A stretch of DNA of 61,843 nt, from assembly GCA_018608435.1 (NCBI GenBank), contig JABAZV010000012.1, positions 3,269 to 65,111 of the forward strand. The letters are read 5' to 3'. The stretch is from Patescibacteria group bacterium (GTDB lineage Bacteria > Patescibacteriota > Minisyncoccia > Phycocordibacterales > UBA918). The notes under the pieces were generated by a model. It ran no database searches. It was not told where the DNA came from and was given only the letters and a program-made list of their open reading frames with translations. This document shows, one piece after another, positions 10,063 through 32,697 of this stretch. Position numbers and translations under genes: made by a program. Each line of letters opens with the position of its first letter. The stretch's first letter is position 1.

Positions 10063-11943
10063 ATGTCGTACAACAACGAAGAGTTTCCTGGCTATGTCAA
10101 AGTAGCCGGCCGCATCACAGTACTAACCGCCTTGGTTGGCGTGGCAGTGTTTGTGGTAGCGTTCATTTTTGACATCGGCAACCAAGAGTTGCAGCGTGTG
10201 TCTGCTCAATCCGCAACTACAACCTTGACTGTTCTAAACACACCACCAGTATTTACTGTCGGTGCGTATGAAGTTGTTGAATCATCAACCACTACGCCCA
10301 CTAACTCAGGTGATATTGTTCAATGGTCTGCTCTCGGAACAGACAGTAACGGTGCTCCGTATTTTTTGCTGATATGTGATGGCAATGCTACACCTACAGC
10401 TAATGCAGCCGCTGGGCCAGGTTCTCTTGGAACACAGCCTCCAGATTGTGATGCTGGAGTTGTGCAGTGGGGAGTTTCTACTAGTACGGTGAGTGGTCAA
10501 TTGGCTACAGTTTCAACTACTACAACTGAAGCTGCACCGTTTGCTGAGCAAAATAACTGGTACGCTTGGGTCTGTGATGACGACCCATTCAACCCTCGCT
10601 GTAACGACATTCCCGTACAGGGACTAAATGCAACTAACTCTTCACCATTTGCTGTAAACGGAAGACCAGTTTTGACTGACTTTGCAAATAACGGACCCGT
10701 TGATCCTGGCGCCACTTTGAATTTCCTTTCAACATCAACTGACCCTGACTTGTCTGGAGGTGAAGACAAGATTTACCTCGTAGTATGTCAAACTAATACT
10801 GACTACAGCACGACAACTAATACTTGTGCAGATAACTTCCTTGCATCAACCACAATTGATCTCTTGAGTGACGCATCTGCGACTTACACTCTGGCGGCAA
10901 TTGTTCGTGATGATACGTACAGTGCTTATGGATACATAGTTGACGAACACGGTCACGAAGCAACTGCTAACCCGATTAGCGCAAACTTTATTGTTAATAA
11001 CGTTACTCCAACAATATTAAGTGGAGACATCGTTCTAAATGGAGGAGGTAACTTAGTGCTTACTATTCCGGCTGGAGAGACACCAAGCAGCACGCTTGAT
11101 TTCACCATTAGAGACGGAAACAGTTGTCTCAACAGTGCATCCACGAGTGAAATTACTGGCTATGAAACTGCGGTCTTTAGAACTGGAGTGGGCACATCAA
11201 CTTGTGATACAACTGCAGGATCTTACGATCCAAACAATTGTTACGGTAGCCAGTTACCACCTGCAACATGGAATCTCTCTTGTAATGCAACTACAACCTG
11301 TGCCAGTCCTTTGCAGGACACTATGGAATACACCTGTACTTTTCCACTATGGTTCGTAGCTGACCCTACAGACGCTGGTCCGAACACTCCAGCCGCGCTT
11401 GAAACAGACACTTGGTCAGCAGCAGTTGCTGGAGCCGATGATGATTTCGCTACTAGTTCACTTGTGATTACGTCTAGTCCTGTAGAATTAGCAAGCTTCA
11501 GTGCAATCGATATTGTAGATGACGAGATTGCTTACGGGGCTGTTGAGCCAGGTGACGATACCGGTACGTTGTCCGCCACTTCAACCGCTCAAAATGTCGG
11601 TAACACAGGACTTGACCAAGAGGTACGAGGAGACTCCATGTGTGGTACTTACACAACAACTACGCCTTGTCCTGCTGCACCAACGTCAACAATCCCAGCT
11701 TCTGAACAAGAATTCGCTTCTACAACTCTAGCTTACGGAAGTGTATTAGCTACAACCTTGTCTTCTACAACTGATATCGAAGTTGAGTTAGATATTCCAA
11801 AGACTACAGCTACTAGTTCAGATCTGTGGCAAGAAGGAACGACATACTGGGGAATTGCAGTTCCGGTCGCGATTACGTTGGCTGGTAGTTATCAAGGGCT
11901 TAACACCTATACAGCGGTAACTGCTGAAGATGCCGACTGGTAG
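10063..11943 (+). CDS. membrane-anchored Thr/Ser/Cys-rich surface protein (626 aa)
   Basis: N-terminal signal anchor ITVLTALVGVAVFVVAFIF followed by T/S-rich beta-type sequence with many Cys. The C-terminal module ends LAGSYQGLNTYTAVTAEDADW. Confidence 0.85.
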   Translation: MSYNNEEFPGYVKVAGRITVLTALVGVAVFVVAFIFDIGNQELQRVSAQSATTTLTVLNTPPVFTVGAYEVVESSTTTPTNSGDIVQWSALGTDSNGAPYFLLICDGNATPTANAAAGPGSLGTQPPDCDAGVVQWGVSTSTVSGQLATVSTTTTEAAPFAEQNNWYAWVCDDDPFNPRCNDIPVQGLNATNSSPFAVNGRPVLTDFANNGPVDPGATLNFLSTSTDPDLSGGEDKIYLVVCQTNTDYSTTTNTCADNFLASTTIDLLSDASATYTLAAIVRDDTYSAYGYIVDEHGHEATANPISANFIVNNVTPTILSGDIVLNGGGNLVLTIPAGETPSSTLDFTIRDGNSCLNSASTSEITGYETAVFRTGVGTSTCDTTAGSYDPNNCYGSQLPPATWNLSCNATTTCASPLQDTMEYTCTFPLWFVADPTDAGPNTPAALETDTWSAAVAGADDDFATSSLVITSSPVELASFSAIDIVDDEIAYGAVEPGDDTGTLSATSTAQNVGNTGLDQEVRGDSMCGTYTTTTPCPAAPTSTIPASEQEFASTTLAYGSVLATTLSSTTDIEVELDIPKTTATSSDLWQEGTTYWGIAVPVAITLAGSYQGLNTYTAVTAEDADW

Positions 11944-11989
11944 GAATTAGCCTGATCCATTTATCCTTAAGTAATTGAAATAAATAAAG

Positions 11990-12013
11990 ACTGAGAATGT
12001 TCTCAGTTTTTTT
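11990..12013 (+). terminator. rho-independent terminator
   Basis: Stem ACTGAGAA/TTCTCAGT (loop TG) followed by TTTTTTT. Confidence 0.8.
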
Positions 12014-12177
12014 ATTGAAATTTAACAAAACCTGATTTACTGGCATATAATTCGTTACAAACCTTTGCATATTTTAATTAGCGTCTTTTATGGCAGGCAA
12101 TATATACTCAATACTTTGTTATCCAAAACAACGCATTGCTTTTTCTTTCTTTTTTCTCGATAATGTAACAATAATAT

Positions 12178-13131
12178 ATGAGTTTCGCGGTACGCAAAAT
12201 TAGCGCATGTGTTCTTCTTTCAGCAGTGTTCTTTCTGGGCACTAATATTAGTGATGCTCTGGCTGGGTTCGGTATTACTCCGCCATACGTACGCAACACT
12301 AGCCTGGTTCGCAACTCAACTTATGAACAGCAGATTTTACTAGTGCGCAGTGACACAAATACAGCTCAGAAAGCCGAGATAACAATCGACGCTCCTGAGA
12401 TTGAGGAATGGGTAACTATTCTTGAAGGAGATGTAATCAGAATGCCTAACGGTGTGCAGAAGGTGCCAATGACGGTGCGTATAGTTGTTCCTGGTGATGC
12501 AGAGTTCCGTAATTATGAAGGTGCAATTAGAATTCGTACATTGCCAGACGATGACCAGGTTAAGCCAGGTGCTGTCAGTATTTCACTTGGAGCGTTAGTT
12601 GATATAGACCTGTCTGTTATCGATCGTGAGATTAAAGATTTTCGTGTTCGCAAAATTTCAGCGGCTGACTTGAATGAAGGTCATAAATTAATGTGGCTAT
12701 TCTTCCCTGGAAAAATTCGTTTCGATATGATGATTGAAAACACCGGTAATGTAGCCATTGCTCCATCCAATGTCTCTTTCCGTATCTTTGATCGCACTGG
12801 AAAAATTTTGCTGGAAGAAACAAACAGTATAGGAAAGACTGAAACTGTTCCTCCTTACGGCACAGAAACAATAACAGCCAATATTCCTACAAGGTTGCCG
12901 GCGGGTAGCTACGTCGCTCGCTATGCTATTTATAATGATGAAGAAGTTAAGCAAGAAGGTGACATTAGTCTTAATATTGTTCCGGCTGGAACGCTTCAGG
13001 CTGCAAATTTTGGTTTTATCGGCTTGTCGATGGCGCATAAGATATCTGTTTTGCTGCCGGTGTTTGCTGTTATCATTGCTGGAATATTTGTCTGGCAGTC
13101 ACGTCGGCGTGATAAGGTTCGTAAAGTATAG
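12178..13131 (+). CDS. DUF916/DUF3324-like cell-surface protein with C-terminal TM anchor
   Basis: Signal peptide ending ALA|GFGITPP, two beta-sandwich-like halves, and a C-terminal TM ISVLLPVFAVIIAGIFVW followed by RRRDKVRK. Confidence 0.8.
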   Translation: MSFAVRKISACVLLSAVFFLGTNISDALAGFGITPPYVRNTSLVRNSTYEQQILLVRSDTNTAQKAEITIDAPEIEEWVTILEGDVIRMPNGVQKVPMTVRIVVPGDAEFRNYEGAIRIRTLPDDDQVKPGAVSISLGALVDIDLSVIDREIKDFRVRKISAADLNEGHKLMWLFFPGKIRFDMMIENTGNVAIAPSNVSFRIFDRTGKILLEETNSIGKTETVPPYGTETITANIPTRLPAGSYVARYAIYNDEEVKQEGDISLNIVPAGTLQAANFGFIGLSMAHKISVLLPVFAVIIAGIFVWQSRRRDKVRKV

Positions 13132-13133
13132 AG

Positions 13134-14249
13134 ATGCGAGTATTAATACGATTCATACAATACAGTTTTGTTGCACTGATCTTATTTCCTTTCTTTGTCT
13201 CTGCTCAAACGCTAAGTTATGCGACCACTACACTCATTATTAGTATTTGTGGTAACGAAATTGTAGACAACGGTGAGGATTGTGATGTGCTTGGAGAAAC
13301 TGGTGTTTACAGCCAAACTATTGCTGGTCGTCAGTGTACGCCAAGCTGTTTTTTTGGACCTTATTGTGGTGATGGTATTTTACAAACATCCTTTGGTGAA
13401 GAGTGCGATGATGGCAACAATGATGACGCTGACTTCTGTTCTTCAATATGTGAAATTGAACCAGCCGGTTCAGGTGGAGGTGGTTCTTCAGGTGGAGGTG
13501 GTTCTTCAGGTGGAGGATCAACCCAAGAACTTGGAGACACTGTTATTTCAATTATCGGTAGAGCATATCCATCTAGAACTATAAATTTTTTACTTGATAC
13601 AGAGTCTGTTGGCTCGGCTCGTTCTGACAGTCAGGGTCGGTTTGATTTTTCTACTGAAGCTTCACCTGGCACAGCGACAATTGGTATTTGGTCAACTGAT
13701 TCCAGCGGGGTTCGCTCGATCACCCTTAACAACACGTTTGATGTTACTCAAGGTGCAGTTACAAGTATTAACGGAATAATTTTACCTCCCACAATTTCTC
13801 TGGCTGACACAACGGTAGATCCTGGTCAATTAGTGACCGTGTCGGGAATATCAGTCCCAGAGACACTGGTAGAGATTCATGTTGATGATAGCGAGTTGGT
13901 TGAGACCACACAGTCGGACTTTGAAGGGCGCTGGAGCTTTGATTTTGATACAAGTAAGGTAAGCATAGCTGAGCACACCCTCAGGGCGCGTTCTGTCATC
14001 GGAGAGCCACCTCTTACTACAGACAGTAGCTTCAGTAATTCTTTGCAGCTATTTGTTGGTGTTGAAGGCAGGGCTACACAGCCGTCTGATCTTAACAGAG
14101 ACGGATTCATTAACTTGATCGACTTTTCTATTTTAATTTTCTGGTGGCAAACAGATGGGGGAGACTCAGATCCGCCAGCTGACATTAATCAAAATGGGCG
14201 AGTCAGTCTAGAAGATTTTTCTATCTTATTGTTTAACTGGACAGGTTAG
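13134..14249 (+). CDS. secreted protein with Cys-rich repeats, Gly/Ser linker, Ig-like domains and C-terminal dockerin-like repeats
   Basis: It starts 2 nt after the previous stop. Two CG(N/D)..(E/D)..GE(D/E)CD motifs match the Myxococcus-type cysteine-rich repeat. A GGGGSS linker follows. The C-terminus has DLNRDGFINLIDFSILIFWW and DINQNGRVSLEDFSILLFNW, an EF-hand-like dockerin pair. Confidence 0.9.
   Translation: MRVLIRFIQYSFVALILFPFFVSAQTLSYATTTLIISICGNEIVDNGEDCDVLGETGVYSQTIAGRQCTPSCFFGPYCGDGILQTSFGEECDDGNNDDADFCSSICEIEPAGSGGGGSSGGGGSSGGGSTQELGDTVISIIGRAYPSRTINFLLDTESVGSARSDSQGRFDFSTEASPGTATIGIWSTDSSGVRSITLNNTFDVTQGAVTSINGIILPPTISLADTTVDPGQLVTVSGISVPETLVEIHVDDSELVETTQSDFEGRWSFDFDTSKVSIAEHTLRARSVIGEPPLTTDSSFSNSLQLFVGVEGRATQPSDLNRDGFINLIDFSILIFWWQTDGGDSDPPADINQNGRVSLEDFSILLFNWTG
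13473..13517 (+). repeat. perfect 18-nt tandem repeat x2.5 (GGTGGAGGTGGTTCTTCA) encoding the GGGGSS linker
   Basis: Units at 13473-13490 and 13491-13508 are identical, followed by a partial unit at 13509-13517. Confidence 0.9.
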
Positions 14250-14284: not shown

Positions 14285-14313
14285 AAAAAACGCTCCTTCA
14301 GAGCGTTTTTTTT
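14285..14313 (+). terminator. rho-independent terminator
   Basis: Stem AAAAAACGCTC/GAGCGTTTTTT with loop CTTCA, then a T tract. Confidence 0.8.
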
Positions 14314-14774: not shown

Positions 14775-15929
14775 ATGCAAAGAACTGCCAACAAGTTCTC
14801 TGTGCTTCAGGCTATTGCAGCGATTGCAGGCTTTGCCATTTTATTATGGTCAGTCGGTCTGCCTTCACTCCGTTTTGCGGAAGCTGCAAGTGTCACCTCA
14901 TTCAGCGATACCCTTTCGACTTCTGAGCCAAGTGTAGTGTCAAACCATACTATTCAGTTCACCACCAATGCTGGTGTTGCGGCTGGACAGTCAATTGTCA
15001 TTTCATTTGAATCAGGGTTTACAGGTGTAGCTGGAATCGCATTCGGCGACGTCGACTTGTCGGTCGACACAGGTTCAGTTGTCGAGGAAGACCTCGCTGC
15101 TGCTGCCTCCGGAGCGGATTGGGGTGTAAGTTCCGCTGGTCAAGATGTCACTATCACAAGTGGTACTGACACCATTGGAGCTAATGCTACAGTCACAATT
15201 GAGATCGGAACAAACGCCACTACCGGAGTAACTGGTACAAACCAGATTACCAACCCGGCAGCTGGATCTTACGAAGTAACGCTAACGTCAGGAGCGACTG
15301 ACACCGGTTCAACCCGAGTTGCAACCATCGAGACTGTTCTCGTAACAGCCTCTGTTGACACACTCTTTACATTTACTGTAGGAGGTGTAATAGGTGGACA
15401 AACAGTAAACGGTACTACAACCACCGGTTCAACTACACCCACAACAATCCCGTTTGGTGTACTGGACGCAGGAGTTGCTAGTACAGCTGCTCAAGACCTT
15501 ACGGTTGTAACAAACGCCAGAAATGGCTTTGTGGTAACAGTAACGGCCGACGGACAGCTTGATTCTTCCACCGGAGCTGACATCGATGGCTTCCGTAACG
15601 GAAACTTCGATTCAACAGCCGTACCGTGGGAGAGTCCATCAGCTAGTGTCGCCGATGAAAATACTTGGGGACACTGGGGTATTACCTCAGACGACCCGAC
15701 GATTACTGCCGGACTAACAGACGAGTTCGACACAGCTGGAGACGGTCAGGATTATGTATCCGCATCGACCACTCCAGTAGAAGTATTTCGTCATGATGGT
15801 CCGATCGATGGAACGCTAACCGGCCAGGGTACTGCCCGAATCGGTTACACCGTAGAAATTAGCGCCTTGCAAGAGGCTGGTAATGACTACGATGCCATTC
15901 TGACTTATGTAGCAACGCCAGTATTCTAG
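14775..15929 (+). CDS. secreted Thr/Gly-rich surface subunit candidate (384 aa)
   Basis: Signal peptide with AEA|AS. The sequence is entirely beta-type and T/G/A/V-rich. The C-terminal module is ...LFTFTVGG...IPFGVLDAG...LTVVTNARNGFVVTVTADG...GNDYDAILTYVATPVF. Confidence 0.85.
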   Translation: MQRTANKFSVLQAIAAIAGFAILLWSVGLPSLRFAEAASVTSFSDTLSTSEPSVVSNHTIQFTTNAGVAAGQSIVISFESGFTGVAGIAFGDVDLSVDTGSVVEEDLAAAASGADWGVSSAGQDVTITSGTDTIGANATVTIEIGTNATTGVTGTNQITNPAAGSYEVTLTSGATDTGSTRVATIETVLVTASVDTLFTFTVGGVIGGQTVNGTTTTGSTTPTTIPFGVLDAGVASTAAQDLTVVTNARNGFVVTVTADGQLDSSTGADIDGFRNGNFDSTAVPWESPSASVADENTWGHWGITSDDPTITAGLTDEFDTAGDGQDYVSASTTPVEVFRHDGPIDGTLTGQGTARIGYTVEISALQEAGNDYDAILTYVATPVF

Positions 15930-15980: not shown

Positions 15981-16020
15981 AAAAAACCTATCTCCCACCA
16001 CGAGAGAGGTTTTTTGTTTT
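15981..16020 (+). terminator. rho-independent terminator
   Basis: Imperfect hairpin AACCTATCTC...GAGAGAGGTT flanked by A and T tracts. Confidence 0.6.
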
Positions 16021-16187: not shown

Positions 16188-17294
16188 ATGAATAAGCGAT
16201 TATTGGCGCCAGGGTTTATTTTGGTAATATTTTTAGCGGTACTTTCTCCCGATTCAGCGGAAGCAGCTTCGTTGTATATAGACCCTCCCTTTAGCGCTTT
16301 AAACAAAGGTGACGCAGGAGTTTTGGCTGTTAGACTCGATGTAGATGAGGATTCTGGCGAATGTGTAAATGCAGTTGATGCAGTTGTTTCATATTCAAAA
16401 GGAATTGAACCGACTGACATTTCGATTGGAGAGTCTATTTTAAGTATTTGGGTTGAAGAACCGCTTATTAACCGCGATGATAGAACTATCACTTTCGCTG
16501 GCGGGATTCCTAACGGCTACTGCGGACGCGTGGTAGGTGATCCGCAGCTAACTAATAAACTTGCAGAAATAATTGTCCGTTCACCGGGTTTTTCAATTGG
16601 TGCCAGTAGCGACACTTCAACCTCAACATTATCCTTTTCTAATAATTCCACTGTTTACTTAAATGATGGTTTTGGCACCAAGGCCTCGCTTAATACTTTT
16701 CCAGCAACGATAAGCTTGGGAGATAAGCCAGGTTCTGCAATGGAAGACCCGTGGCAAGAGATAGTCGATGCTGACACAACAGCACCGGAAGAGTTTAGTA
16801 TTTCCTTGCAGCGAGACGAAAAAGCTTTCAGTAAAAAATACTACATTGTTTTTAATACTTCAGATAAACAAACAGGAATCGATCGCTATGAAGTAATTGA
16901 AGAAAAAATAGATCTAATTGGTAGTTTTCAGTGGGGAAGGGCTGATGCTCCGTGGGTGAAAGCTAGAAGCCCTTACGTACTTGAAGATCAGACTTTGAAC
17001 AGCACAATCCGTGTTAAGGCAGTCGATAAGACAGGTAATGAGTACATTGCTACTTTGGTTCCGGACGAATCATTACGAACTGCTTCTGCTGAAAGTAGGG
17101 TTGCAATAGCAGCTATTGTGGCTGGAATCGGGCTGGTTTTGATGTTGGCAATTGTTGCAGTTGTATTTGCCTTTAGGCGGAAGCGACGTGGTCAGGCATC
17201 AGGGTTTGGTGGTAAAGAAGATGAGTCTGATGAAGTTTTTGACGAAGAAATAAGCGAAGAAGAAGTGACTGATAATTCCAAAATAGAAAAATAA
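16188..17294 (+). CDS. cohesin-like domain protein with C-terminal TM anchor and acidic tail
   Basis: Signal AEA|ASLYIDPP. The segment ...VLAVRLDVD..CVNAVDAVVSYSKGIEP..ISIGESILSIWVEEP...ITFAGGIPNGY fits the cohesin-type pattern seen in CPR proteins. The TM is IAAIVAGIGLVLMLAIVAVVFAF followed by RRKRR. Confidence 0.8.
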   Translation: MNKRLLAPGFILVIFLAVLSPDSAEAASLYIDPPFSALNKGDAGVLAVRLDVDEDSGECVNAVDAVVSYSKGIEPTDISIGESILSIWVEEPLINRDDRTITFAGGIPNGYCGRVVGDPQLTNKLAEIIVRSPGFSIGASSDTSTSTLSFSNNSTVYLNDGFGTKASLNTFPATISLGDKPGSAMEDPWQEIVDADTTAPEEFSISLQRDEKAFSKKYYIVFNTSDKQTGIDRYEVIEEKIDLIGSFQWGRADAPWVKARSPYVLEDQTLNSTIRVKAVDKTGNEYIATLVPDESLRTASAESRVAIAAIVAGIGLVLMLAIVAVVFAFRRKRRGQASGFGGKEDESDEVFDEEISEEEVTDNSKIEK

Positions 17295-20875: not shown

Positions 20876-21081
20876 GTAATATTACGAACAAAAAACGACA
20901 ATAAATTTAACTCAACAACAGTAAAGCTTTACCAGTTTAGCCACTTTGCATGTTGATAGGATGAAATTTAGGTGTGCGAGCTTGTTATTATGTTATTACG
21001 TTCTTTCTGCGGTAGTTTAGCCATACGACGACTCAGAAAGCATGTAACTGTACAACGTAGAGTGTAATTTCCTTCTTGGAA

Positions 21082-23275: not shown

Positions 23276-26200
23276 ATGTTTTCCAAAATTTTGTCACGTA
23301 AAGTAAAACCATCAAAGAACTTTAAGAAGCGATTGAAACATCGTTCTCGCTTCGCTGTGGCTGGTTTTTTGGTAGCTTTGCTATTTTTGGAAATGACGAG
23401 TAGCTTGCTTACAAACACCTTTATTCCTGGCTTTATTTCTGTAGCAGAAGCGGCTTACAGCAATATCGATGCCGATGGTGACGGTACTGTCTCTGCAGCG
23501 CAAACTACTTGTGGAGGAGGGGGGAACTTTGATTGTCTTAACGACGGCGTGGCTACTTCTAGTAACCCTGGAACAGGTAGTGATTTCTTGGCTTTTTCAG
23601 GCGGAAATCAAGATTTCTACACAATGACGACTTTGCCGGCTGTTGATGCTGTAAGCAGGGTTTCTGTTCCGGTATACCACTTGGAAACAAGTGCAAACAT
23701 GAGATTGTCAGTAGCTTTGTGGGATGCTACAGAAACAACTCAATATGGAACAACTATTCAGTTTGCCAATGCCGCTTCTTCACTGTGGGACACGGCAGTT
23801 TTTTCTGGTCTCTCGCTCACCCAAACACAGCTTGATGGTTTGAGAGTAGAGCTTAGTTGCGCGCGTGTCGGCGGCGGAAAGTCAAATGAATGTAATGCTT
23901 ACGCAATGTTCGCTGCAGCTACTTACACTGAAGTTATTGATGTGACAGTAGGAAGTGTTGGTACTCAGCAAGATCTGGCTATTCCAACGACAACCGCGCA
24001 CGTCGGAGGATCATTTTCAATAGTTGAGAATACAGCTAGTCGAAACGTTACCTCAATAACTATTGCCGAGCAGGGAACAGTCGATGGTCAAAATGATCTT
24101 GATAATATTAAGTTGTTTTATGATCTCGACACAAGCGATCCATACAACTGTGCAGGTGAGACATATTCTGGGGGGGAGACACAGTTTGGAAGTACCGACA
24201 CTGATGGCTTTTCGGGCGCGAACGGCACGTCTGTTTTTACCGGCTCGGTTAACATAACTACCACTCAAGCAATGTGTGTTTATCCGGTGCTGGATGTTCT
24301 TGGTACAGTAACCTTTGACGAAACAGTAGAGATTCAAATTACCAACCCTGCGACTGATGTGGTTGGTAGCGGGTCGCCGGTTATTTCACCTGGCTCTGCG
24401 GTGCTGCTTTCGAGCACAACTGTCCTGCGACAATCTTCGATTGTGCAAGAGAACTATCATTGGCGTAACGATGACGGTTCAGAAGCGGCTGCTACCTCGG
24501 CAACGGCTGGGTCTGAAAACACTGCCTACAATGGAATGCCAAAAAACTCTACCAAGCGCGTGCGTTTTGCAGTGTCAAATGAAGGTAATGCTGATTCCAC
24601 CGCCCTACAGTTGCGTTTGGAATATGCTACGGCTACCGCGGCCTGTTCTGCACTTGGTACTTGGGTTGATACGGGTGCTGCTGGCGGTGCGTTTTCTATG
24701 TCGGATTCAGCTTCTCTCACAAACGGCAATGACACTACCGACATTTCGGTTGGAATAGGTGGTGTAACCAATCCCAATACAACTTTCCTTACAACAAACG
24801 GCGGAGTGCGTGATACTTCTTCTCAAACTGGCAATATAACCGCTACGTCTACAGAGTTCGTGGAGGTTGAATATTCAATCATTGCGTCAACTGCTATTCC
24901 GGACGGAACGTCTTATTGTTTTCGAGTGACAGACGCTGGAACTGCGCTGGATGGCTACACTAATTATCCAGAAGCAAACTTTAGCGCTGACGTTGAGGTC
25001 GATAGCACTGGCACGCAAACAGCGCAAGTGACTATTCCTACAACCGGTCAATACGCCGGCGGTGTATTGCGCTTAACAGACACTTCTGCTGGTTCTGATA
25101 CTCTCACCAGCGTCACTATTACCGCTAGTGGATCGATTGATATCGCCGCCGATGTGGAAAATATCAAACTTCGTTACGATCTTGACATCAGCAATCCGTA
25201 CACTTGCGATGACACTTCATATGCCGATACTGATACTCAGTTTGGTACCACTGTTACTAATTTTGACGGCAGTAATAAAGCAACTTTTTCTGGTTCGGTA
25301 ACTAACTCGCAAACCCAAACAGTGTGTTTGTACGTTGAATACGATGTAGTTGACACAACAACTAACGGAGGTTTGTTAGATGTTTATATTGCCAGCCCGT
25401 CAAGCGAGATTGTTTTTACGTCATCGACCGTTTCGCCATCTTCTCCGGTAGAGATTTCTGGTATGACAACTTTCGCTGCACCGTTTTTAACTCAAGCAAA
25501 TTATCATTGGCGCAATAATGACGGCACAGAGACAGGAGCAACTTCGGCTACTGGTGGAACTGAAAATACCGTTCTGACTGAAATGGCTAAAAGTAGCACG
25601 TATCGATTACGTTTTGCGCTTGGTAACACTGGTTTGTCGAATGCGCCTGAAGCGCGCTATCAGATTCAGTGGGCACAAAAAATATCAAGCTGCGTGGCAA
25701 CGCCAGAAATTGACTGGGAGCCAATTGGCACAGCAGCTGATGAATGGCAAATGTCCCCGACAGGGAACCTTACTGAAGGTAATGATACGACTGACGTTTT
25801 GCTGGCAAACGGAGGGGTTAGTGATCCGGCTGGTACATTCTTGACCAACAACAACGGGGTTAACGACACAACGGATCTGACCGCTTCGTCTACTTTGTTG
25901 GCTGATAATTATCTTGACTTAGAATTTGCGATAAGTCCTACAACTGAAAGTGTGCAAGGCGCAACTTACTGTTTTAGGGTGGTAGCAAATGGTAATCCGC
26001 TTGATTCTTATACTAATTTTCCTGAAGCTGTAGTAAAGCTCGATACCGACTATAAAATTCAGCGCGGAGTAAGTACGATGACTGGCACCACGCTCACTAT
26101 TACCGCTGGAAGTGAATACGAAGTACCGTCTTCAACGCGTGCGTTTATTCGCATCACAAATACCCAACTTACTGGCGCAGGGCCAAATACAGGTAATACA

Positions 26201-28825
26201 GCTAATAATGCTGACGATGTAACGGCCTATATTAGCAATCCAGGAAACCTAGCAACCAGCATTACTTTTAGTCGCGCAGGAGCTACTGGTAACACTCGAG
26301 TTGCTTGGGAAATCATCGAGTACATTGGAGCTGAAGGAGGGGAGAACGAAATGCTCGTACGCCGTCATGAGGCAGTAGCCTATGGAGCCGCCAACACAAC
26401 AGTGAGCGGATCCGTCACAGGAACAATTGCTGATGATAATGACGTAGCAGTATTTATAACTGGTCAAAATAATGCTAATACTGGTCGAAATGGCTATAAC
26501 GAAGGGCTTTCTACCTCAGCGTGGAATGCTACCAATAATCAAGCTGATTTTACGCGCGGAGTAAGCGGCGCGGTGTCGAACGTCAGTTATGCTTTAGTTG
26601 AGTTTACTGGCAGTAACTGGAAAGTGCAGCGTGTTGAACATGCTTACTCGAATGCAGGTGCAGTGGAAGTTCAAGGAATTGCTTCTGTTAATAGTCTGAC
26701 CAGGGCTTTTTTGCACGTACAGATGCGTACAAATCAAAATAAACACGCTGACTTCGGACAAGAGGTTTACTTTTCTGGAATTGGACAAATCTCCTTCTTA
26801 CTCGATGCCGCTGCGGCTGTAACTACCGGTTCTCATACTTCGGTTGCATGGGTGATTGAGAGTACACAAACACAAGGAGTTGTGATGGATGTGCATCGTT
26901 CAAACGGTGCCTTTACCTCGGCTGGAGCTGGTCCAGAAACCAACAATGTAAACATTGGTGCAACTCTGTCTGACCTGTCGGTGGCGTCAATCTTTACTAA
27001 CAACCGTAGTGACGAAACACAACGCTCTTGGCCTGAGCCGATTTTGGCAGCCAGACTTATTTCAACTACGCAGTATGAGCTTTGGCGTAGTGACACTACG
27101 GCAAACCTGAACTTCCGCACTGAGGTAGTCGAGTGGCCGACGGCTGCCAGAAAACTAGAGCAAAATTATTATCGTATCTATGTTAACGACGCTAGTAGCA
27201 TTAAGCCGAGTGATCCGTGGCCGGTAGGCGCAACTAATCTTGGTGAAAATGCAGAGATGACTGCTAACGATACTCCGATGGCAAGTGGAGATATTGCGCG
27301 TGTTCGCATGACGGTTTCGGTTACCGCTTCAGCTGTGCCGGCTGGACTGGATGCTTTTAAGTTAGAATACGGTCTACGCTCTGAAGCGGGTACTTGTAGC
27401 GGTATAACCAGTAATGATTGGCATGAAGTAGGCGGGATAGGTAGCACAACTGCTCTCTGGCGCGGTGTAAACAATACTCCAGCTGATGGGGCTGCATTGT
27501 CTGCGACAAATCCTCCTACGGGTGGTGATCTGCTTATTTCAATCGGTAGTGTGGCTGGTTCTTACGAAGAAGAGAATGATTCATCTTTAAACCCCTATCT
27601 TGCTTTCCCTGGTGATGAGGTTGAATACGACTGGGTGCTGCAGCACAATGGCGCAGCTGATAAAAGCTCTTATTGTTTCCGGATGGTTGAGTCTGACAGT
27701 AAATTGCTTGAAAACTATAACTTCTACCCCGTGCTACGAACAGTGGGGTATGATCCGCGTATAACCAATTGGCGCTGGTACGACGATGAGGCTAGTCTTA
27801 CACCATCAGCTCCACTCGCAGGAGAGAATGTTTCGCCTGTAGACGTTGTTAATCAAAACGCCATTAAATTACGCTTAGTGCTAGAAGAAAGCTCAGGAGC
27901 TTCAGGGATTGATGCAAAATTTGCTTTGCAGGTTTCGCAGCAAGCCGACTTTAGCTCGGCCGTGGCGACGGTAACACCGTCTGGACTTTGCTTAGAGGAT
28001 TCAATCTGGTGTTACGAAGATGGGTCGGGAGTAGACAATGCAATTATCGACGGCGTGGTTATTTCGGATGCTGATACTTGTGTATCGGGCGTGGGAGCAG
28101 GTTGCGGTACACATAATGAAAGCACTAGTAGTACAACAGCTACTTTTGATCATGCCGCCCTTACTTCAGCCGAATACGAGTTTACGATTTTGCACGCTGG
28201 AGCGCGCGCCAACGCGGTGTATTACTTTCGTTTATACGACGTTGTAAATAATGAACTGGTGCTTTTAGCTGGCGGAGCAAGCTATCCTTCGCTTGTTACA
28301 GAGGGAGCACAATTAGTCTTTACTGTCGCCGGTCTTGATGCGGGCATTAGTACTGCTGGCATTGTGACCGACGCCACCACAACAGCAGCGAGTATTGGCT
28401 TTGGCGGTTTGCCTTTTGGCACATCAGTTGAGGCGGCGCAGAGAATTACAATCAATACCAATGCTACCGAGGGTTATCAGCTCTTTGTGTCGGCAGCACA
28501 GGAATTACTCAATGTTTATGGTGAGGCTATTCCTGCAGTGTCTTCAACCAACGCTGCGCCGGATGGCTGGACAGATGCTTGTCTTGTTTCTGTCACTGGC
28601 TGCTTTGGTTATCATAGTACCGATGGAACGCTTAATGGCGGTGATGGTCGGTTTGCTCCAACCGATTCTTACGCTGCGCTTAGCACGACGGCCGAAGAAA
28701 TAATGTACAGCTCAATTCCAATCAGCGACACGCATGATGTGGTTTACAGATTGTCTGTAACCGAAGAGCAAGCCGCTGGTGATTACGAAACTAGCATACA
28801 GTATATTGCTGTACCAACGTTCTAG
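23276..28825 (+). CDS. giant surface protein (1849 aa)
   Basis: N-terminal basic region plus TM or signal (AEA|AYS). There is an internal ~330-aa duplication and four ~170-aa modules that begin (N)Y(H/Y)WR or NWRWY and end YCFR/YYFR...Y..(Y/F)P. The C-terminal module ends AGDYETSIQYIAVPTF. Confidence 0.9.
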   Translation: MFSKILSRKVKPSKNFKKRLKHRSRFAVAGFLVALLFLEMTSSLLTNTFIPGFISVAEAAYSNIDADGDGTVSAAQTTCGGGGNFDCLNDGVATSSNPGTGSDFLAFSGGNQDFYTMTTLPAVDAVSRVSVPVYHLETSANMRLSVALWDATETTQYGTTIQFANAASSLWDTAVFSGLSLTQTQLDGLRVELSCARVGGGKSNECNAYAMFAAATYTEVIDVTVGSVGTQQDLAIPTTTAHVGGSFSIVENTASRNVTSITIAEQGTVDGQNDLDNIKLFYDLDTSDPYNCAGETYSGGETQFGSTDTDGFSGANGTSVFTGSVNITTTQAMCVYPVLDVLGTVTFDETVEIQITNPATDVVGSGSPVISPGSAVLLSSTTVLRQSSIVQENYHWRNDDGSEAAATSATAGSENTAYNGMPKNSTKRVRFAVSNEGNADSTALQLRLEYATATAACSALGTWVDTGAAGGAFSMSDSASLTNGNDTTDISVGIGGVTNPNTTFLTTNGGVRDTSSQTGNITATSTEFVEVEYSIIASTAIPDGTSYCFRVTDAGTALDGYTNYPEANFSADVEVDSTGTQTAQVTIPTTGQYAGGVLRLTDTSAGSDTLTSVTITASGSIDIAADVENIKLRYDLDISNPYTCDDTSYADTDTQFGTTVTNFDGSNKATFSGSVTNSQTQTVCLYVEYDVVDTTTNGGLLDVYIASPSSEIVFTSSTVSPSSPVEISGMTTFAAPFLTQANYHWRNNDGTETGATSATGGTENTVLTEMAKSSTYRLRFALGNTGLSNAPEARYQIQWAQKISSCVATPEIDWEPIGTAADEWQMSPTGNLTEGNDTTDVLLANGGVSDPAGTFLTNNNGVNDTTDLTASSTLLADNYLDLEFAISPTTESVQGATYCFRVVANGNPLDSYTNFPEAVVKLDTDYKIQRGVSTMTGTTLTITAGSEYEVPSSTRAFIRITNTQLTGAGPNTGNTANNADDVTAYISNPGNLATSITFSRAGATGNTRVAWEIIEYIGAEGGENEMLVRRHEAVAYGAANTTVSGSVTGTIADDNDVAVFITGQNNANTGRNGYNEGLSTSAWNATNNQADFTRGVSGAVSNVSYALVEFTGSNWKVQRVEHAYSNAGAVEVQGIASVNSLTRAFLHVQMRTNQNKHADFGQEVYFSGIGQISFLLDAAAAVTTGSHTSVAWVIESTQTQGVVMDVHRSNGAFTSAGAGPETNNVNIGATLSDLSVASIFTNNRSDETQRSWPEPILAARLISTTQYELWRSDTTANLNFRTEVVEWPTAARKLEQNYYRIYVNDASSIKPSDPWPVGATNLGENAEMTANDTPMASGDIARVRMTVSVTASAVPAGLDAFKLEYGLRSEAGTCSGITSNDWHEVGGIGSTTALWRGVNNTPADGAALSATNPPTGGDLLISIGSVAGSYEEENDSSLNPYLAFPGDEVEYDWVLQHNGAADKSSYCFRMVESDSKLLENYNFYPVLRTVGYDPRITNWRWYDDEASLTPSAPLAGENVSPVDVVNQNAIKLRLVLEESSGASGIDAKFALQVSQQADFSSAVATVTPSGLCLEDSIWCYEDGSGVDNAIIDGVVISDADTCVSGVGAGCGTHNESTSSTTATFDHAALTSAEYEFTILHAGARANAVYYFRLYDVVNNELVLLAGGASYPSLVTEGAQLVFTVAGLDAGISTAGIVTDATTTAASIGFGGLPFGTSVEAAQRITINTNATEGYQLFVSAAQELLNVYGEAIPAVSSTNAAPDGWTDACLVSVTGCFGYHSTDGTLNGGDGRFAPTDSYAALSTTAEEIMYSSIPISDTHDVVYRLSVTEEQAAGDYETSIQYIAVPTF

Positions 28826-28855
28826 TCTATTCTGTAAATCACTAAAAATGCTATT

Positions 28856-29920
28856 ATGAAAACAATGCTTCCGACAAATTATTTACACTTAAAGCTCATA
28901 AAGCTTGTCTTGCTGCTTCTTCTCACTGCAACAGCTTGTCTTAGTTTTGCTCCTTTAGCAGCTGCCAGCGGAATTACAATTCGGCCGTTTTTGATTGACG
29001 AAACACTTGAGCCACGCGGAGTTGCCACCAACGAAATTTTCATCACTAGTGATCATCCCGCGCCGCGCAAAGCGACTGTGTACGCAACGGTTAACGAAAT
29101 CACGGTTGACGCGTCGGGGGAGATTAAAGAATTTATTTCTCCAGTGATGACTGATCGCACTAACACCGTGACAAGCTGGATCGAAGTTTCGCGCGGACGC
29201 ATTACCATTCCACCAGGGGAAACCGCCACTTTGCCAATCACAGTGCGTACTCATCCTTTTGCCGAGCCTGGCGAGTACCATGTATTTATTGGTTTAGTTG
29301 AAGCGCCAAATCGTCCAACGGCAGAAAACATAGCGATGGCAGGTAATGCGCGTGGAGTTGTTCTTAAGGTAACGATCGACGATCAGCGTAAAGATGGTCT
29401 CAAAATAAAGAACTTCTTGGTTGATCGTTTTGTGACGGGAGAAGATTCACGTTTGATCACAGTCAATATTGAGAATACTGGCGATCTGCCAGCTTCTCCA
29501 GAAGGGGAAGTTGTTTTCTATGATTCTCGCGGTTCAGAGCAAATGGCGGTGCCAGTGAGTGCGGCTGGCAAGTTGGTACAGCCTGGAGAAGAAATGACAC
29601 TCACAACCAACGTTCCCATTGAGGGTGATCTTGGTCGCTACAAAGCAAATCTTACTTTGCGTTATGGTGAACGACAGAGTGCTGCTTTATATGACACTAC
29701 TTTCTTTTACCTTGTGCCCACACAAACACTATTTGTAATATTCTTATTTACACTGCTGTTTGTTTTGACTTCTGTATTTTTGCTGCGCCGCGTCTTTACT
29801 GGGCAACGCGAAGGCGGTGATTTTGAAGAAGTGTCAATGTATGTCGACGAAGAGTCTGTCAGAGAACCACAAGATCATGACATCGACTTAAAAAAACCAG
29901 CAGAAAAGACTAAAGAATAA
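28856..29920 (+). CDS. DUF916/DUF3324-like cell-surface protein with C-terminal TM anchor
   Basis: Signal AAA|SGITIRPF, then ...TSWIEVSRGRITIPPGETATLPITVRTHPFAEPGEYHVFIGLVEAP. A second beta domain is followed by the TM LFVIFLFTLLFVLTSVFLL plus RR and an acidic tail. Confidence 0.8.
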   Translation: MKTMLPTNYLHLKLIKLVLLLLLTATACLSFAPLAAASGITIRPFLIDETLEPRGVATNEIFITSDHPAPRKATVYATVNEITVDASGEIKEFISPVMTDRTNTVTSWIEVSRGRITIPPGETATLPITVRTHPFAEPGEYHVFIGLVEAPNRPTAENIAMAGNARGVVLKVTIDDQRKDGLKIKNFLVDRFVTGEDSRLITVNIENTGDLPASPEGEVVFYDSRGSEQMAVPVSAAGKLVQPGEEMTLTTNVPIEGDLGRYKANLTLRYGERQSAALYDTTFFYLVPTQTLFVIFLFTLLFVLTSVFLLRRVFTGQREGGDFEEVSMYVDEESVREPQDHDIDLKKPAEKTKE

Positions 29921-29926
29921 ATTTTT

Positions 29927-31591
29927 ATGATTACGTCACTCATCAAAGTTAAGCTAAATTATTTTGTCAAAGTTTTGACGTTAGCGTTAATGGCGGTGAT
30001 GTTTGCTGGCTCTTTCTTGTGGCCATTTGTGACGGCTGCTCAAGGGTCGCTGTCGCTTAGTATTTCACCAACTCTTTTTGAAATGACTGCTAATCCAGAT
30101 GATCGCTTCGTGAGTGTTGTGCGAGTTATTAATCCAAACCCTTTTGATATTACTGTCACTGCTGAACCGGTAAACTTCATGCCTAAAGGCGAAGGAGGAG
30201 AAGGAGTCTTTAGGCCGATAGAAAATGAAGATGATCAAACATCAACTTTAGCTGGCTGGATTTTTCTTGAATCAACTATCATTACTGTTGCTGCTGAACA
30301 AACAGCAGAAGTTCCATTTACAATCGAAGTTCCAGAAGATGCTCCTCCTGGAGGACATTTTGCAGCGATGCTGATTGGTACAAAGTCGCTTGGTTCAGAT
30401 GAAAACAGAAATAATGTCGAAACATCACAAGTAGTGACGTCATTAGTTTTTCTGCGGGTTACTGGTGATATTAATGAATCTGGTTCCATCAGAGAGTTTC
30501 GTTCCGTCGATAAAGTGGTCGAACGACCGGAGGTAGACTTTTCTTTACGCTTCCAAAATGACGGAAACGTTCATATTTTGCCGCAAGGAGAGATTCGTAT
30601 TTTCAACATGTGGGGTCAGGAACGTGGGGTGCTGCCAGTGAATCGTCAGACAATGTTTGGTAATGTGCTGCCAGACAGTATTCGTGAGTACAGGTTCAAC
30701 TGGTCAGGAGAATGGTCTTTAGCTGACATGGGTCGCTATAAAGCTGTAGCGACTCTGGCTTATGGTCAGGACTCACGGCAGTTTGTTAATTCAGAAACAA
30801 GTTTTTGGTTAATTCCGTGGAAGATACTATTGCTGGTAATTTTGGCGTTTAGTGCTTTTGCTGCAGTAATGACCTGGGGAATAAAGCTTTATATTCGTAA
30901 GATGTTGCGCATGGCAGGAGTTGTTCCTGGTGAAGAAGTATTCCCATCACCTGCAAAAAGTGAACGAAAAGTTTCTGTCGTAGCGCCACTTGAAGAAGGG
31001 ATACTAGACTTGCGTCACCGCATGGCTGCTTCAAAAACAGTTTCTAGTAAGTTTGCAGCTGTATTCTCTTTTGTTAGCCAGTACAAACTTTTCTTTGCCT
31101 TAGCAGGCACAGCAATTGTCTTTATTGTGCTCTTGGCTGGTTATGTGCGCGGAGCATCTATCAACGAACGTCAGTATGAAGTAACCGTCAGCAGTGCTGG
31201 TGAGGACGTCACTATCACTTCTGAAGACATTAAATACAACGAACTCAAAGATCAGCAAGTAGAAAACCAAGATGAAAAAAAGGATGTTGAAACGTCAGTT
31301 GTGAGTCTTGTTCCTCCGATTAAGATTGTTAATCAAAGTGGAGTAAATGGTTTGGCGGCAGAGCTTCGTCTTAAGCTAGAAACAGCTGGCTACGAAGTGG
31401 CTGAGCTTACCAACGAGATGGGTTCTTCTGAAAATAATACTGTCATAGTTTATGCTCCAGAGTATAGTTCTGAAGCTTTGCAGCTTAGCTTAGATGTGTA
31501 CGGTGCACTGACTTCTTCTTTCGACGATCTGACAGACAGTCAGGCACCGATTGTGATATATGTTGGAAAAGACCTGGAGAACGCTCGGTAG
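29927..31591 (+). CDS. DUF916/DUF3324-like protein fused to a C-terminal LytR_C-like domain
   Basis: The segment SLSISPTLFEMTANP...LAGWIFLES..ITVAAEQTAEVPFTIEVPEDAPPGGHFAAMLIGT is DUF916-like. It has two TMs. The C-terminal IKIVNQSGVNGLAAELRLKLETAGYEV...NTVIVYAPE...PIVIYVGKDL matches the LytR_C pattern. Confidence 0.8.
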   Translation: MITSLIKVKLNYFVKVLTLALMAVMFAGSFLWPFVTAAQGSLSLSISPTLFEMTANPDDRFVSVVRVINPNPFDITVTAEPVNFMPKGEGGEGVFRPIENEDDQTSTLAGWIFLESTIITVAAEQTAEVPFTIEVPEDAPPGGHFAAMLIGTKSLGSDENRNNVETSQVVTSLVFLRVTGDINESGSIREFRSVDKVVERPEVDFSLRFQNDGNVHILPQGEIRIFNMWGQERGVLPVNRQTMFGNVLPDSIREYRFNWSGEWSLADMGRYKAVATLAYGQDSRQFVNSETSFWLIPWKILLLVILAFSAFAAVMTWGIKLYIRKMLRMAGVVPGEEVFPSPAKSERKVSVVAPLEEGILDLRHRMAASKTVSSKFAAVFSFVSQYKLFFALAGTAIVFIVLLAGYVRGASINERQYEVTVSSAGEDVTITSEDIKYNELKDQQVENQDEKKDVETSVVSLVPPIKIVNQSGVNGLAAELRLKLETAGYEVAELTNEMGSSENNTVIVYAPEYSSEALQLSLDVYGALTSSFDDLTDSQAPIVIYVGKDLENAR

Positions 31592-31603
31592 TTTCTTCAT
31601 CAG

Positions 31604-31612
31604 TGGTATAAT
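31604..31612 (+). promoter_or_regulatory. extended -10 element TGGTATAAT
   Basis: TGnTATAAT located 18 nt upstream of ATG 31630. No clear -35 box. Confidence 0.35.
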
Positions 31613-31629
31613 TTAATTAGTTATTACTT

Positions 31630-32097
31630 ATGAGTAAAACAACAATTGCTCTTCTGGTAGGATTATATGGTTGTTTTATTATTGCCATGATGATTTACAA
31701 TAACTCAAATCATGCAACACGCGAATTGCCAAAAGAACTGCCTGCAAACAAAGTAGCCTTACCGGTTTCTGCTTATCAAAGCATAACCACAATAAATGCC
31801 CAGCACCTTTACGAAGAAGGATTACATGCAATCAGCGGGGAAGTTGTTCTGCCTACACCTTGCGACTCTTTGCTGCATGACGTTGTGGTCGCAGAGTCTT
31901 TCCCAGAACAGGTAACCATAAATTTCTCAGTTTTAAAAAACGAAGAAAACTGCACTCGAGTAGAGAAGTCAGTGCCGTTTGAGGTAGAATTTATGGCTTC
32001 AGATCAGGCTATTATAAAAGCTAGATTTATGGGGCGAATGGTCGAACTTAATCTTGCCGAAATTTCTAATGAGAAAAGGTTAGAGGAAGAGTCGTAA
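31630..32097 (+). CDS. membrane-anchored hypothetical protein (155 aa)
   Basis: ORF with an N-terminal TM (IALLVGLYGCFIIAMMIY). No family recognised. Confidence 0.7.
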   Translation: MSKTTIALLVGLYGCFIIAMMIYNNSNHATRELPKELPANKVALPVSAYQSITTINAQHLYEEGLHAISGEVVLPTPCDSLLHDVVVAESFPEQVTINFSVLKNEENCTRVEKSVPFEVEFMASDQAIIKARFMGRMVELNLAEISNEKRLEEES

Positions 32098-32154
32098 GTC
32101 AAGAGCAATTATAAATATTTATATAAATTTACTGTGCAATTTGTAAAAGGACAC

Positions 32155-32697
32155 ATGACGACAATATTGGTGATTATGCTAATTATTTTATTGATGGCAG
32201 TTGCTATGTGGTGGGTGTTGGATCGGAAAGAAGCAAAAGAGCTGACCGAAAGCGCCGCCGGTCAAGTTTTTACAACTATAGAAAATCAGCCTGCGTTTAC
32301 CAACATAACTGGCGAACCACTTGATTTGTCGAGCAATGTTGGTGAAATTTTAATTGTAAACATTTGGGCTAGCTGGAGCCCTGATTCTGCTACCGAATTA
32401 CCAGCTCTCTCTTTGCTTTCGCAAAAGTATACCGATCAAGGTGTGCGCGTCGTTGCTATGAACCGAGGTGAGCCAGCCCAAACCGCTGAAAGATTTTTAA
32501 ATAGAATAGGCGCGACTGAAGGAGTCACTTTGGCTTTTGATCCAGATGACAATTTCTATGATTCTGTCTCAGGTTACGCTATGCCTGAAACGCTGGTTTA
32601 TGATCAAGCAGGAGAACTTCTGTATCATCACAGAGGAGTTGTTTCAGTTGAATTGATAGAACAGAATATAAAGCAAATTTTGGCAGATAAGCCGTAG
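32155..32697 (+). CDS. TlpA/ResA-like thioredoxin-fold protein lacking both active-site cysteines
   Basis: ORF 32134 (GTG), with ATG at 32155. An N-terminal TM is followed by ILIVNIWASWSPDSATELPAL...GVRVVAMN...GYAMPETLVYDQAGELL. This fits the redoxin pattern, but W-S-P-D-S replaces W-C-x-x-C. Confidence 0.8.
   Translation: MTTILVIMLIILLMAVAMWWVLDRKEAKELTESAAGQVFTTIENQPAFTNITGEPLDLSSNVGEILIVNIWASWSPDSATELPALSLLSQKYTDQGVRVVAMNRGEPAQTAERFLNRIGATEGVTLAFDPDDNFYDSVSGYAMPETLVYDQAGELLYHHRGVVSVELIEQNIKQILADKP

Follow-up and report, generated by a model that had tools for sequence, protein, structure and literature searches.

Organization of the locus

The stretch of DNA analysed here (61,843 nucleotides from contig JABAZV010000012.1 of assembly GCA_018608435.1, a Patescibacteria group bacterium; hereafter, the window) contains between positions 10063 and 32697 (~22 kb) a series of 14 open reading frames (ORFs), all on the + strand, which we name g1 to g14. 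We propose that a surface fibre (pilus) distantly related to the Pam pili of Ca. Mycosynbacter amalyticus is the probable product of this locus, which belongs to a Paceibacteria (Parcubacteria/OD1) bacterium. A previous reading of the same DNA from its letters alone (the sequence-only reading) had described a co-directional block of 14–15 genes, each encoding a protein with a signal peptide or a transmembrane (TM) anchor. The ORF listing agrees with the gene number, and an N-terminal hydrophobic segment is present in 14/14 locus proteins. A C-terminal TM helix is additionally found in g2, g5, g6, and g11, while g12 has two internal TM helices. The short intergenic gaps of 2–6 nt that had been noted at four junctions (13131/13134, 17294/17298, 19112/19115, and 29920/29927) were found at these coordinates. 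The cleavage context AEA|A(S/Y), said to be common to four signal peptides, is likewise present in g4 (384 aa), g5 (368 aa), g6 (604 aa), and g10 (1849 aa), where it is an ordinary canonical AxA signal-peptidase site.

A candidate major pilin and a giant protein with the same C-terminal domain

Two proteins of the locus end in a domain similar to the C-terminal domain of Pam pilins:

14775..15929, + strand: g4, 384 aa, Cys-free, with a signal peptide; candidate major pilin
23276..28825, + strand: g10, 1849 aa, with a signal peptide; giant adhesin-like subunit

Pam pili are known from cryo-electron microscopy (cryo-EM) of filaments of Ca. Mycosynbacter amalyticus (Saccharimonadia), in which PamA and PamB were recognized as the pilins (Troman et al., bioRxiv 10.64898/2026.03.03.709456). 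Both have a nine-strand N-terminal beta-sandwich, a linker strand that is donated to the neighbouring subunit, and a truncated immunoglobulin (Ig)-like C-domain, with conservation being highest at the donated linker and at its binding site in the C-domain (Troman et al.).

The architecture of g4 comprises an N-terminal beta-sandwich (~43–184), a conserved hydrophobic linker strand (188–205), and a C-terminal Pam-pilin-like domain (~222–384). In the AlphaFold2 (AF2) model (pLDDT 82.5), a sandwich of ~10 strands (43–184) is followed by a single strand (198–204) and a seven-strand C-domain, a layout of secondary structure that equals the published pilin plan. The pattern of conservation is similar as well, with peaks in the last strand, the core segments of the C-domain, the linker (181–200), and the first mature residues, and a minimum in the middle of the N-domain. 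The protein is acidic, Ser/Thr-rich, Cys-free, and strongly conserved. More than 1883 homologues have 60–67% identity to g4, and a profile search of a database of 1.84 billion representatives yielded 2057 clusters (50% identity) at E 1e-3 or better. The homologues found by identity to g4 all come from Parcubacteria/Paceibacteria-type metagenome-assembled genomes (Kaiser-, Nomura-, Pacebacteria), and all are annotated as hypothetical.

The only family recurrently matched by these proteins in NCBIfam is NF058581 (CPR_Pam_pilin_C; curated cut-off 55 bits). It matches g4 itself with 16 bits (E 0.0096) and 19 of 36 close homologues, with the best E of 3e-6. Ten divergent family members (~345 aa) have E values of about 1e-55 to 1e-60 with the g4 profile, and nine of them align to the model over its full length (positions 2–148 of 148) with E from 2e-9 to 5e-5. 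These matches, consistent although sub-threshold, suggest that the C-domain of g4 is a distant homologue of the Pam-pilin C-domain. A search from a divergent intermediate (P0364) retrieved only hypothetical proteins of Parcubacteria and Falkowbacteria and reached no named Pam pilin, and sequence searches of PDB with the g4 profile, g10, and g1 gave no match.

The C-terminus of g10 (1680–1849) consists of the same linker and Pam-pilin-like domain as g4 (198–384). The similarity is seen both in BLASTP (30% identity, E 1e-5) and in hhalign comparison of the family alignments (99.8%, E 5e-30), and the module is kept in g10 of all related loci examined. The remainder of g10 contains a tandem 350-aa duplication (222–574 and 572–925) and WRNDDG-type repeat modules, and the protein has no Pfam match. 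The sequence-only reading had assigned a common C-terminal module to three proteins, of 626, 384, and 1849 aa. This stands for the latter two and fails for the 626-aa protein, g1, in which the module was ruled out at the sequence level (hhalign 1–4% even with a diverse 190-sequence profile).

The identity of the shared domain with WxL, the cell-surface domain of Firmicutes, was also rejected at the sequence level, as PF13731 has 0 matches in 36 family members. Comparison with 16 genuine WxL domains gave hhalign values of 1.7–6.1%; the best alignment is colinear over an FG, a 'GW.L.V'-like, and a terminal 'Y..TLTW.L..P'-like motif and is not significant. In g1, g4, and g10, the C-terminal 200 residues contain no W-x-L motif. 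A hand-made WxL bait, which retrieved true WxL genes from plasmids, had no match in the PDB sequence file.

The similarity of g4 extends to yet another lineage of the Candidate Phyla Radiation (CPR). A 3077-aa protein of Candidatus Peregrinibacteria (P0257, PIQ78623.1) matches the g4 profile in nine separate places, most strongly with the N-terminal domain of the pilin, which suggests that this domain is also used there as a tandem repeat.

The signals that delimit transcription units are as follows:

12022-12051: promoter-like site 5' of g2, 11/12 matches
14285-14311, + strand: intrinsic-terminator-like hairpin, an 11-bp stem followed by a T run, closing the g2–g3 unit
about 15985-16020: terminator-like hairpin directly 3' of g4, which looks bidirectional (read in the sequence; its minus-strand version comes from the scan)

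Since terminator-like hairpins flank g4 on both sides, the block comprises several transcription units rather than one operon, and g4 is therefore monocistronic. Placement alone between two terminators is what the gene of an abundant subunit would show. The g4 start codon is separated from the g3 terminator by ~460 untranslated nt (14312-14774) with no Rfam match, which may be a long leader or the promoter region of the putative major pilin gene; Rfam and tRNA scans gave no match anywhere inside the locus.

Three membrane-anchored WxLIP-like proteins

Three further genes encode paralogous membrane proteins with two beta domains:

12178..13131, + strand: g2, 317 aa, signal peptide, two Ig-like domains, TM helix 289–307
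28856..29920, + strand: g11, 354 aa, signal peptide, beta-sandwiches 40–174 and 182–286, TM helix 289–319
29927..31591, + strand: g12, 554 aa, WxLIP-like two-domain unit, two TM helices, C-terminal LytR_C

The three are related to each other with hhalign values of 95–99.9% (97.7% for g11 and g2, 99.9% for g11 and g12). The LytR_C domain of g12 is recognized by Pfam with 38 bits, and the same fusion of a WxLIP-like unit with LytR_C recurs in three other loci (L084, L085, and L154). The AF2 model of g11 (pLDDT 85.4) contains two beta-sandwich domains and a TM helix. Its top Foldseek matches in PDB are 9i1y ('WxLIP from Enterococcus faecium') and 9i25 ('WxLIP bound to long WxL'), both 2026 structures, with E 1e-11; these are followed by RbmA and then by the pilus chaperones CfaA, FimC, EcpB, and CsuC (E 3e-9 to 3e-7).

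Profile comparison points in the same direction. Against eight WxLIP proteins, hhalign gave 96.8% for g12 (E 2.6e-10, 248 columns), 93.2% for g11, and 90.8% for g2, versus 0.1% for g8, 0.4% for g4, 8.8% for g6, and 75.7% over 83 columns for g5, which served as controls. The WxLIP and WxL reference sets were taken from clusters on plasmids of Enterococcus, Bacillus, Lactiplantibacillus, Lactococcus, Listeria, and Pontibacillus. Pfam matches remain sub-threshold: DUF916 (PF06030) scores 14.7 bits in g12 with the cut-off of 27.3, the best relative reaches 23.8 bits, and in the g11 family (39 members) weak matches to PF06030 are seen in 4/39 proteins and to PF11797 (DUF3324) in 0/39. No NCBIfam model matches the g11 family, and the g11 profile retrieves only two chance-level matches (E about 0.8–0.9) from PDB sequences. 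Judging from profile and fold similarity, g2, g11, and g12 are remote homologues of WxLIP (DUF916+DUF3324). The earlier description of three TM-anchored proteins as 'DUF916/DUF3324-like' is therefore right at the level of remote homology.

These proteins invite comparison with the WxL/Csc clusters of Firmicutes (Siezen, 2006; Hassan et al., 2023, PMC10599100; PDB 9i1y, 9i25). Genuine clusters on Firmicute plasmids (L147, L150, and L153) encode a small WxL protein, WxLIP, and a giant WxL-ended protein (in one case of 1514 aa). The locus likewise combines a small protein, an anchored two-Ig protein homologous to WxLIP, and a giant protein sharing the C-domain of the small one; in both cases all parts are secreted and the host is a monoderm. 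On the other hand, the shared C-domain is not recognizable as WxL, the small protein g4 has an extra N-terminal domain, and cohesin and dockerin modules are added. No LPXTG-like motif was found near the C-terminus of any locus protein and no sortase family is among the Pfam matches, and hence there is no CscD. The resemblance to csc/WxL clusters suggested by the sequence-only reading is therefore justified for the anchored proteins and not for the shared C-terminal domain.

An alternative to a pilus is thus a non-filamentous complex of the WxL/Csc type, in which g2, g11, and g12 would each hold one copy of g4 or g10 via its C-domain, with cohesin–dockerin pairs adding further proteins. It would explain why WxLIP is both the closest solved fold of g11 and its homologue at the profile level, and why the small–anchored–giant arrangement is exactly that of the three plasmid clusters; moreover, the published model is a 1:1 WxLIP–WxL complex with a hairpin strand of DUF916 inserted into WxL (PMC10599100). 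However, the C-terminal module matches not WxL but the Pam pilin domain, which polymerises; g4 has a full additional N-domain and a conserved hydrophobic linker, as Pam pilins do; and the very large and highly conserved g4 family, together with the monocistronic setting of the gene, suits a bulk structural subunit. We consider such a complex unlikely.

Cohesin and dockerin proteins

Four genes encode proteins with cohesin or dockerin modules:

13134..14249, + strand: g3, 371 aa, secreted, with a Cys-rich DUF4215 repeat, Ig-like domains, and a C-terminal type I dockerin
16188..17294, + strand: g5, 368 aa, signal peptide, cohesin-like domain, second beta domain, TM helix 309–327, acidic tail
17298..19112, + strand: g6, 604 aa, signal peptide, cohesin, Big_13 Ig domains, TM helix 485–503, ~100-aa cytoplasmic tail
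20054..20797, + strand: g8, 247 aa, secreted, cohesin and dockerin in one protein (adaptor type)

In Pfam, g3 scores above the cut-offs for both DUF4215 (32.3 bits) and Dockerin_1 (27.7 bits, cut-off 22.9), and the two Ca-binding repeats of its dockerin can be read in the sequence; the gene starts 2 nt past the g2 stop. Similarly, g8 is above the cut-offs for Cohesin (30.2 bits) and Dockerin_1 (25.0 bits), and g6 matches Cohesin (27.8 bits, cut-off 24.1) and Big_13 (7.9e-14), making it a candidate membrane-anchored scaffold. g5 has no Pfam cohesin match of its own and is cohesin-like only as a paralogue of g6 (hhalign 99.8%, 252 columns) and g8 (96.5%), to which it is also related by BLASTP. 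With this qualification, the count of three cohesin-like and two dockerin proteins given by the sequence-only reading is borne out.

As in cellulosomes, there are Pfam-level cohesins, a type I dockerin with duplicated Ca-binding repeats, an adaptor combining cohesin with dockerin (g8), and cell-anchored cohesin proteins (g5 and g6). In contrast to cellulosomes, no glycoside hydrolase or other enzyme carries a dockerin here: the dockerin-bearing proteins of the locus contain, according to Pfam, no carbohydrate-active enzyme and only DUF4215, Ig, or cohesin modules. Anchoring is via a TM helix rather than an SLH domain or a sortase, and the modules are part of a pilus-type locus, with the dockerin being fused to a pilin N-domain in the paralogous loci described below.

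In cellulosome-producing Firmicutes, cohesin–dockerin interaction and S-layer anchoring coexist. This could be taken in favour of g4 being a subunit of a two-dimensional S-layer or sheath, anchored or decorated by the other proteins via cohesin–dockerin pairs and TM helices; the strong conservation, the acidic, Ser/Thr-rich, and Cys-free composition, and the probably abundant expression of g4 would also fit. Yet neither the locus proteins nor the g4 family match any S-layer family, the homology is to a domain that forms helical filaments by cryo-EM, and chaperone-like partners adjoin each pilin paralogue, which makes an S-layer improbable.

Literature searches yielded no report of cohesin or dockerin in CPR pili, and no usable expression data. 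The Pam preprint mentions neither cohesin/dockerin nor WxL/DUF916 (Troman et al.). Accordingly, the statement of the sequence-only reading that no described system has such composition no longer holds for the pilus part, as Pam pili were described in 2026, while the combination with cohesin and dockerin is still apparently undescribed. A dockerin-domain protein is among the genes found to be essential by transposon sequencing (Tn-seq) in the Saccharimonadia epibiont Southlakia (PMC10633639), which would fit a role in host interaction but is no proof of it.

Conservation of gene order and paralogous loci

Synteny in related genomes, which the sequence-only reading had proposed as a check, is extensive: the order of g1–g10 is conserved in about 50 species-level genomes of Paceibacteria, and that of g9–g14 in about 35 further loci.

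In addition, many of the same genomes contain elsewhere a second, smaller paralogous locus (L068:9965-16783; also L060, L065, L070, L071, and L154). It comprises a g4 paralogue (45–52% identity), a WxLIP-like protein, a 133-aa protein with two TM helices, and Hsp20, as well as a dockerin protein of ~630 aa (12787-14682 in L068), in which a full pilin N-domain is followed by Ig domains and dockerin (36.5 bits) and the pilin C-domain is absent. A cohesin-TM protein (31.1 bits) was found where the sequence reached that far (L068). A Falkowbacteria contig encodes two tandem pilins, three WxLIP-like proteins, one of them with LytR_C, a 132-aa protein, a pilin-N-domain–dockerin protein, and Hsp20. 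In at least two CPR lineages, therefore, predicted pilin and chaperone genes are linked to a dockerin gene in settings independent of each other; the Paceibacteria mini-locus has a predicted cohesin-TM gene as well. The Hsp20 gene keeps its position in the paralogous locus even in Falkowbacteria. Neither the 133-aa protein nor g13 showed similarity to pilins.

Adjacency of unrelated secreted proteins through the colinearity of small CPR genomes would be a trivial explanation of the cluster. Indeed, the colinearity continues downstream of the locus into genes of an AI-2E transporter, FKBP, TGT, and UvrB, and the block is made of several transcription units. It seems very improbable nonetheless, because the paralogous loci recur: the same module set is found in an independently located locus and in another CPR class, and the sharing of a domain by g4 and g10, as well as the pilin-N-domain–dockerin fusion, links the modules physically.

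Relationship to Pam and chaperone–usher pili

Besides the layout and conservation of g4, the locus shares with Pam systems the presence of several pilin-type proteins per locus and a CPR host. Pam systems encode PamC and PamD, predicted PapD/FimC-like chaperones with a C-terminal TM helix, and the RbmA-like, TM-anchored PamR (Troman et al.). Among the accessions that the preprint gives for Pam proteins are WP_260763287.1, WP_260763280.1, WP_260763277.1, WP_260763284.1, WP_260763282.1, and WP_260763289.1. Correspondingly, two-Ig chaperone-like proteins with a C-terminal TM helix are three per locus (g2/g11/g12 vs. PamC/PamD/PamR), g11 being similar in fold to FimC, CfaA, EcpB, and CsuC, and g2 and g12 being its paralogues. 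In both systems there is no usher, sortase, or secretion ATPase.

The differences are also evident. Pam systems have been reported mainly from Saccharimonadia and Microgenomatia, and PamA and PamB have paired cysteines (Troman et al.), whereas the class here is Paceibacteria/ABY1, with scores under the NCBI family cut-off, and g4 has no cysteines. In addition to a giant subunit of 1849 aa, the locus has cohesin and dockerin proteins, a chaperone–LytR_C fusion, and a thioredoxin-fold protein as conserved parts, and no single-domain PamT-like tip pilin was identified in it.

Chaperone–usher pili (Pap/Fim, CFA/I, Csu, and Ecp) resemble the locus in the fold of their chaperones (CfaA, FimC, EcpB, and CsuC) and in an adhesin subunit that shares the pilin domain; a donor-strand logic is presumed here as well. 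They differ in that here the usher and the outer membrane are absent, the chaperones carry a membrane anchor, each pilin consists of two domains, and an internal linker, rather than an N-terminal extension, is the candidate for the donor strand. No locus protein matches an usher or PapD at the Pfam level, the similarity being at the level of the fold only.

Tentative model of fibre assembly

Homologies, domain architectures, synteny, and transcription-unit signals were obtained directly in this work, and from them we infer all steps of the following mechanism. All parts would be exported via Sec. The major subunit would be g4, with its N-terminal beta-sandwich, hydrophobic linker strand, and presumably incomplete Ig-like C-domain, and subunits would polymerise by donor-strand exchange, the strand of one completing the C-domain of its neighbour. 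g10, in which ~1600 residues of repeats precede the linker and C-domain, would be built in as an adhesive subunit, probably at the tip. By analogy with PapD/FimC chaperones or WxLIP, g2, g11, and g12 may cap the open C-domain of exported subunits and pass them to the fibre; one of the three may tether the fibre base, and LytR_C of g12 may touch the cell wall. The membrane cohesins g5 and g6, the adaptor g8, and the dockerin protein g3 would dock accessory or terminating subunits at the cell surface. A role in attachment to a host is our inference.

In its architecture, the pilin-N-domain–dockerin protein of the paralogous loci is what one would expect of a terminator that ends the fibre and plugs into a membrane cohesin, and, since it has no acceptor C-domain, the fusion may act as a chain terminator. 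This step of the model, in which the terminator could tie the base of the fibre to such a cohesin, is of the greatest interest and also the least certain. Anchoring of a pilus by a dockerin plug and a membrane cohesin was not found in the literature searched.

Several observations weigh against a Pam-like pilus. Every NF058581 score is under the 55-bit cut-off (16–38 bits; 23–38 for the best family members), and hence the g4 family is a distant subfamily outside the curated rule. The likeness to Pam pilins was judged by this profile and by the published description of the Pam proteins, and Pam pilins were not found among PDB entries by sequence search. Foldseek with the whole g4 model retrieved only generic two-Ig MSCRAMM adhesins with TM-scores of 0.2–0.3, a result that is uninformative beyond suggesting tandem Ig-like domains. 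The neighbourhood of ATP synthase, conserved around pam operons (Troman et al.), has no counterpart, as no ATP-synthase family is among the Pfam matches of the larger window ORFs that were scanned. As the colinearity extends into housekeeping genes, synteny alone is weak evidence. The linker-like strand is present in g10 too, and thus its position at the tip is not dictated by the sequence. Finally, g3 lacks the pilin N-domain of the paralogous dockerin proteins, and therefore the terminator idea is not directly supported at 10063-32697.

The system belongs to a known kind, that of Pam pili (2026) and WxL/WxLIP (2006–2026), and is a divergent version of it in a different CPR class. New in comparison with pam operons are the cohesin–dockerin set, the chaperone–LytR_C fusion, the giant subunit, and the thioredoxin-fold protein. 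Pam pili have been described only in 2026 and from a single cultured member of Saccharimonadia; the locus indicates that a related system may be a conserved core feature of Paceibacteria, which form the largest CPR class in many groundwaters. The pilin family numbers more than 2000 clusters at 50% identity, all annotated as hypothetical. The locus provides a candidate parts list, namely, the major subunit, adhesin, chaperones, and anchors, of fibres that uncultured cells may use towards hosts or surfaces. The homology of the putative chaperones to the Firmicute WxLIP connects two systems whose literature does not cross-reference, and suggests that strand complementation may operate on WxL proteins as well. 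The recurrent coupling with cohesin and dockerin, including the fusion of a pilin domain to dockerin, offers a testable idea of how a fibre might be anchored without an usher or a sortase. A broader and rather doubtful conjecture is that a single ancient fibre-assembly system of monoderms, centred on a membrane-anchored two-Ig chaperone, gave rise to both Pam pili and the Firmicute WxL/Csc clusters, and that the last subunit of the Paceibacteria/ABY1 fibre, in which a pilin N-domain and donor strand are fused to a dockerin, plugs into a membrane-anchored cohesin.

Other proteins of the locus

The remaining five genes are the following:

10063..11943, + strand: g1, 626 aa, N-terminal TM/signal anchor (hydrophobic 18–36), first gene of the locus
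19115..19816, + strand: g7, 233 aa, N-terminal TM helix 20–38, the rest looking helical by eye, conserved in syntenic loci
21076..23196, + strand: g9, 706 aa, secreted, highly acidic (22.5% Asp+Glu), syntenic
31630..32097, + strand: g13, 155 aa, small, N-terminally anchored
32134..32697, + strand: g14, 187 aa, membrane-anchored thioredoxin-fold protein (Redoxin/TlpA/ResA-like), syntenic

g1, which is conserved in order in about 50 related loci, has 14 Cys, 24% Ser+Thr, and 1.8% Lys+Arg; apart from a weak match to the Tad N-terminal family, it has no match in Pfam, NCBIfam, or PDB sequences. g9 had been described as an acidic propeller-like protein. Its acidity is clear, and the propeller is weakly suggested by sub-threshold matches to TolB and beta-propeller repeats (NCBIfam beta_prop_Msarc and TolB, E 6e-5 to 2e-4, far below the cut-offs).

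The absence of a recognizable enzyme from the locus, claimed by the sequence-only reading, is inexact, as g14 belongs to the Redoxin/ResA/TlpA family (Pfam Redoxin, E 2e-11; NCBIfam ResA, E 3.6e-17), though its CxxC site reads SPDS. Among 44 g14 orthologues (including those of L084–L145), ~16 have CPxC and ~28 have SPxS, both cysteines being replaced by serines together, which suggests that redox activity was lost repeatedly or long ago while the fold was kept. g13 is detectable by tblastn in about one-third of the related loci, and a gene of that size is called in two of them (L084 and L085). The families of g13 and g14 align with hhalign 66% over 119 columns, and g13 may represent a degenerate paralogue of g14 with a thioredoxin fold.

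Neighbouring genes in the window

Directly 5' of the locus, positions 6101-8935 encode a 944-aa protein (19% acidic) with no N-terminal signal segment and no family match, followed by ~1.1 kb with no convincing ORF (8935-10063). In related genomes, the position upstream of the locus is occupied by ABC_tran and MacB/FtsX genes instead. Downstream, at 39976-44719, genes of a response regulator and a histidine kinase flank that of an 855-aa TSP3/Big_13 protein, whose Big_13 region has weak similarity (E 0.004) to the one in g6 and which may be a regulated surface protein. Another surface protein may be encoded at 47724-51908, between uvrA-like and uvrC genes: it is Ser/Thr-rich, has 1394 aa and 24 Cys, matches a single family, Ig_7, weakly, and in BLAST faintly resembles domain two of g11 (E 0.006).

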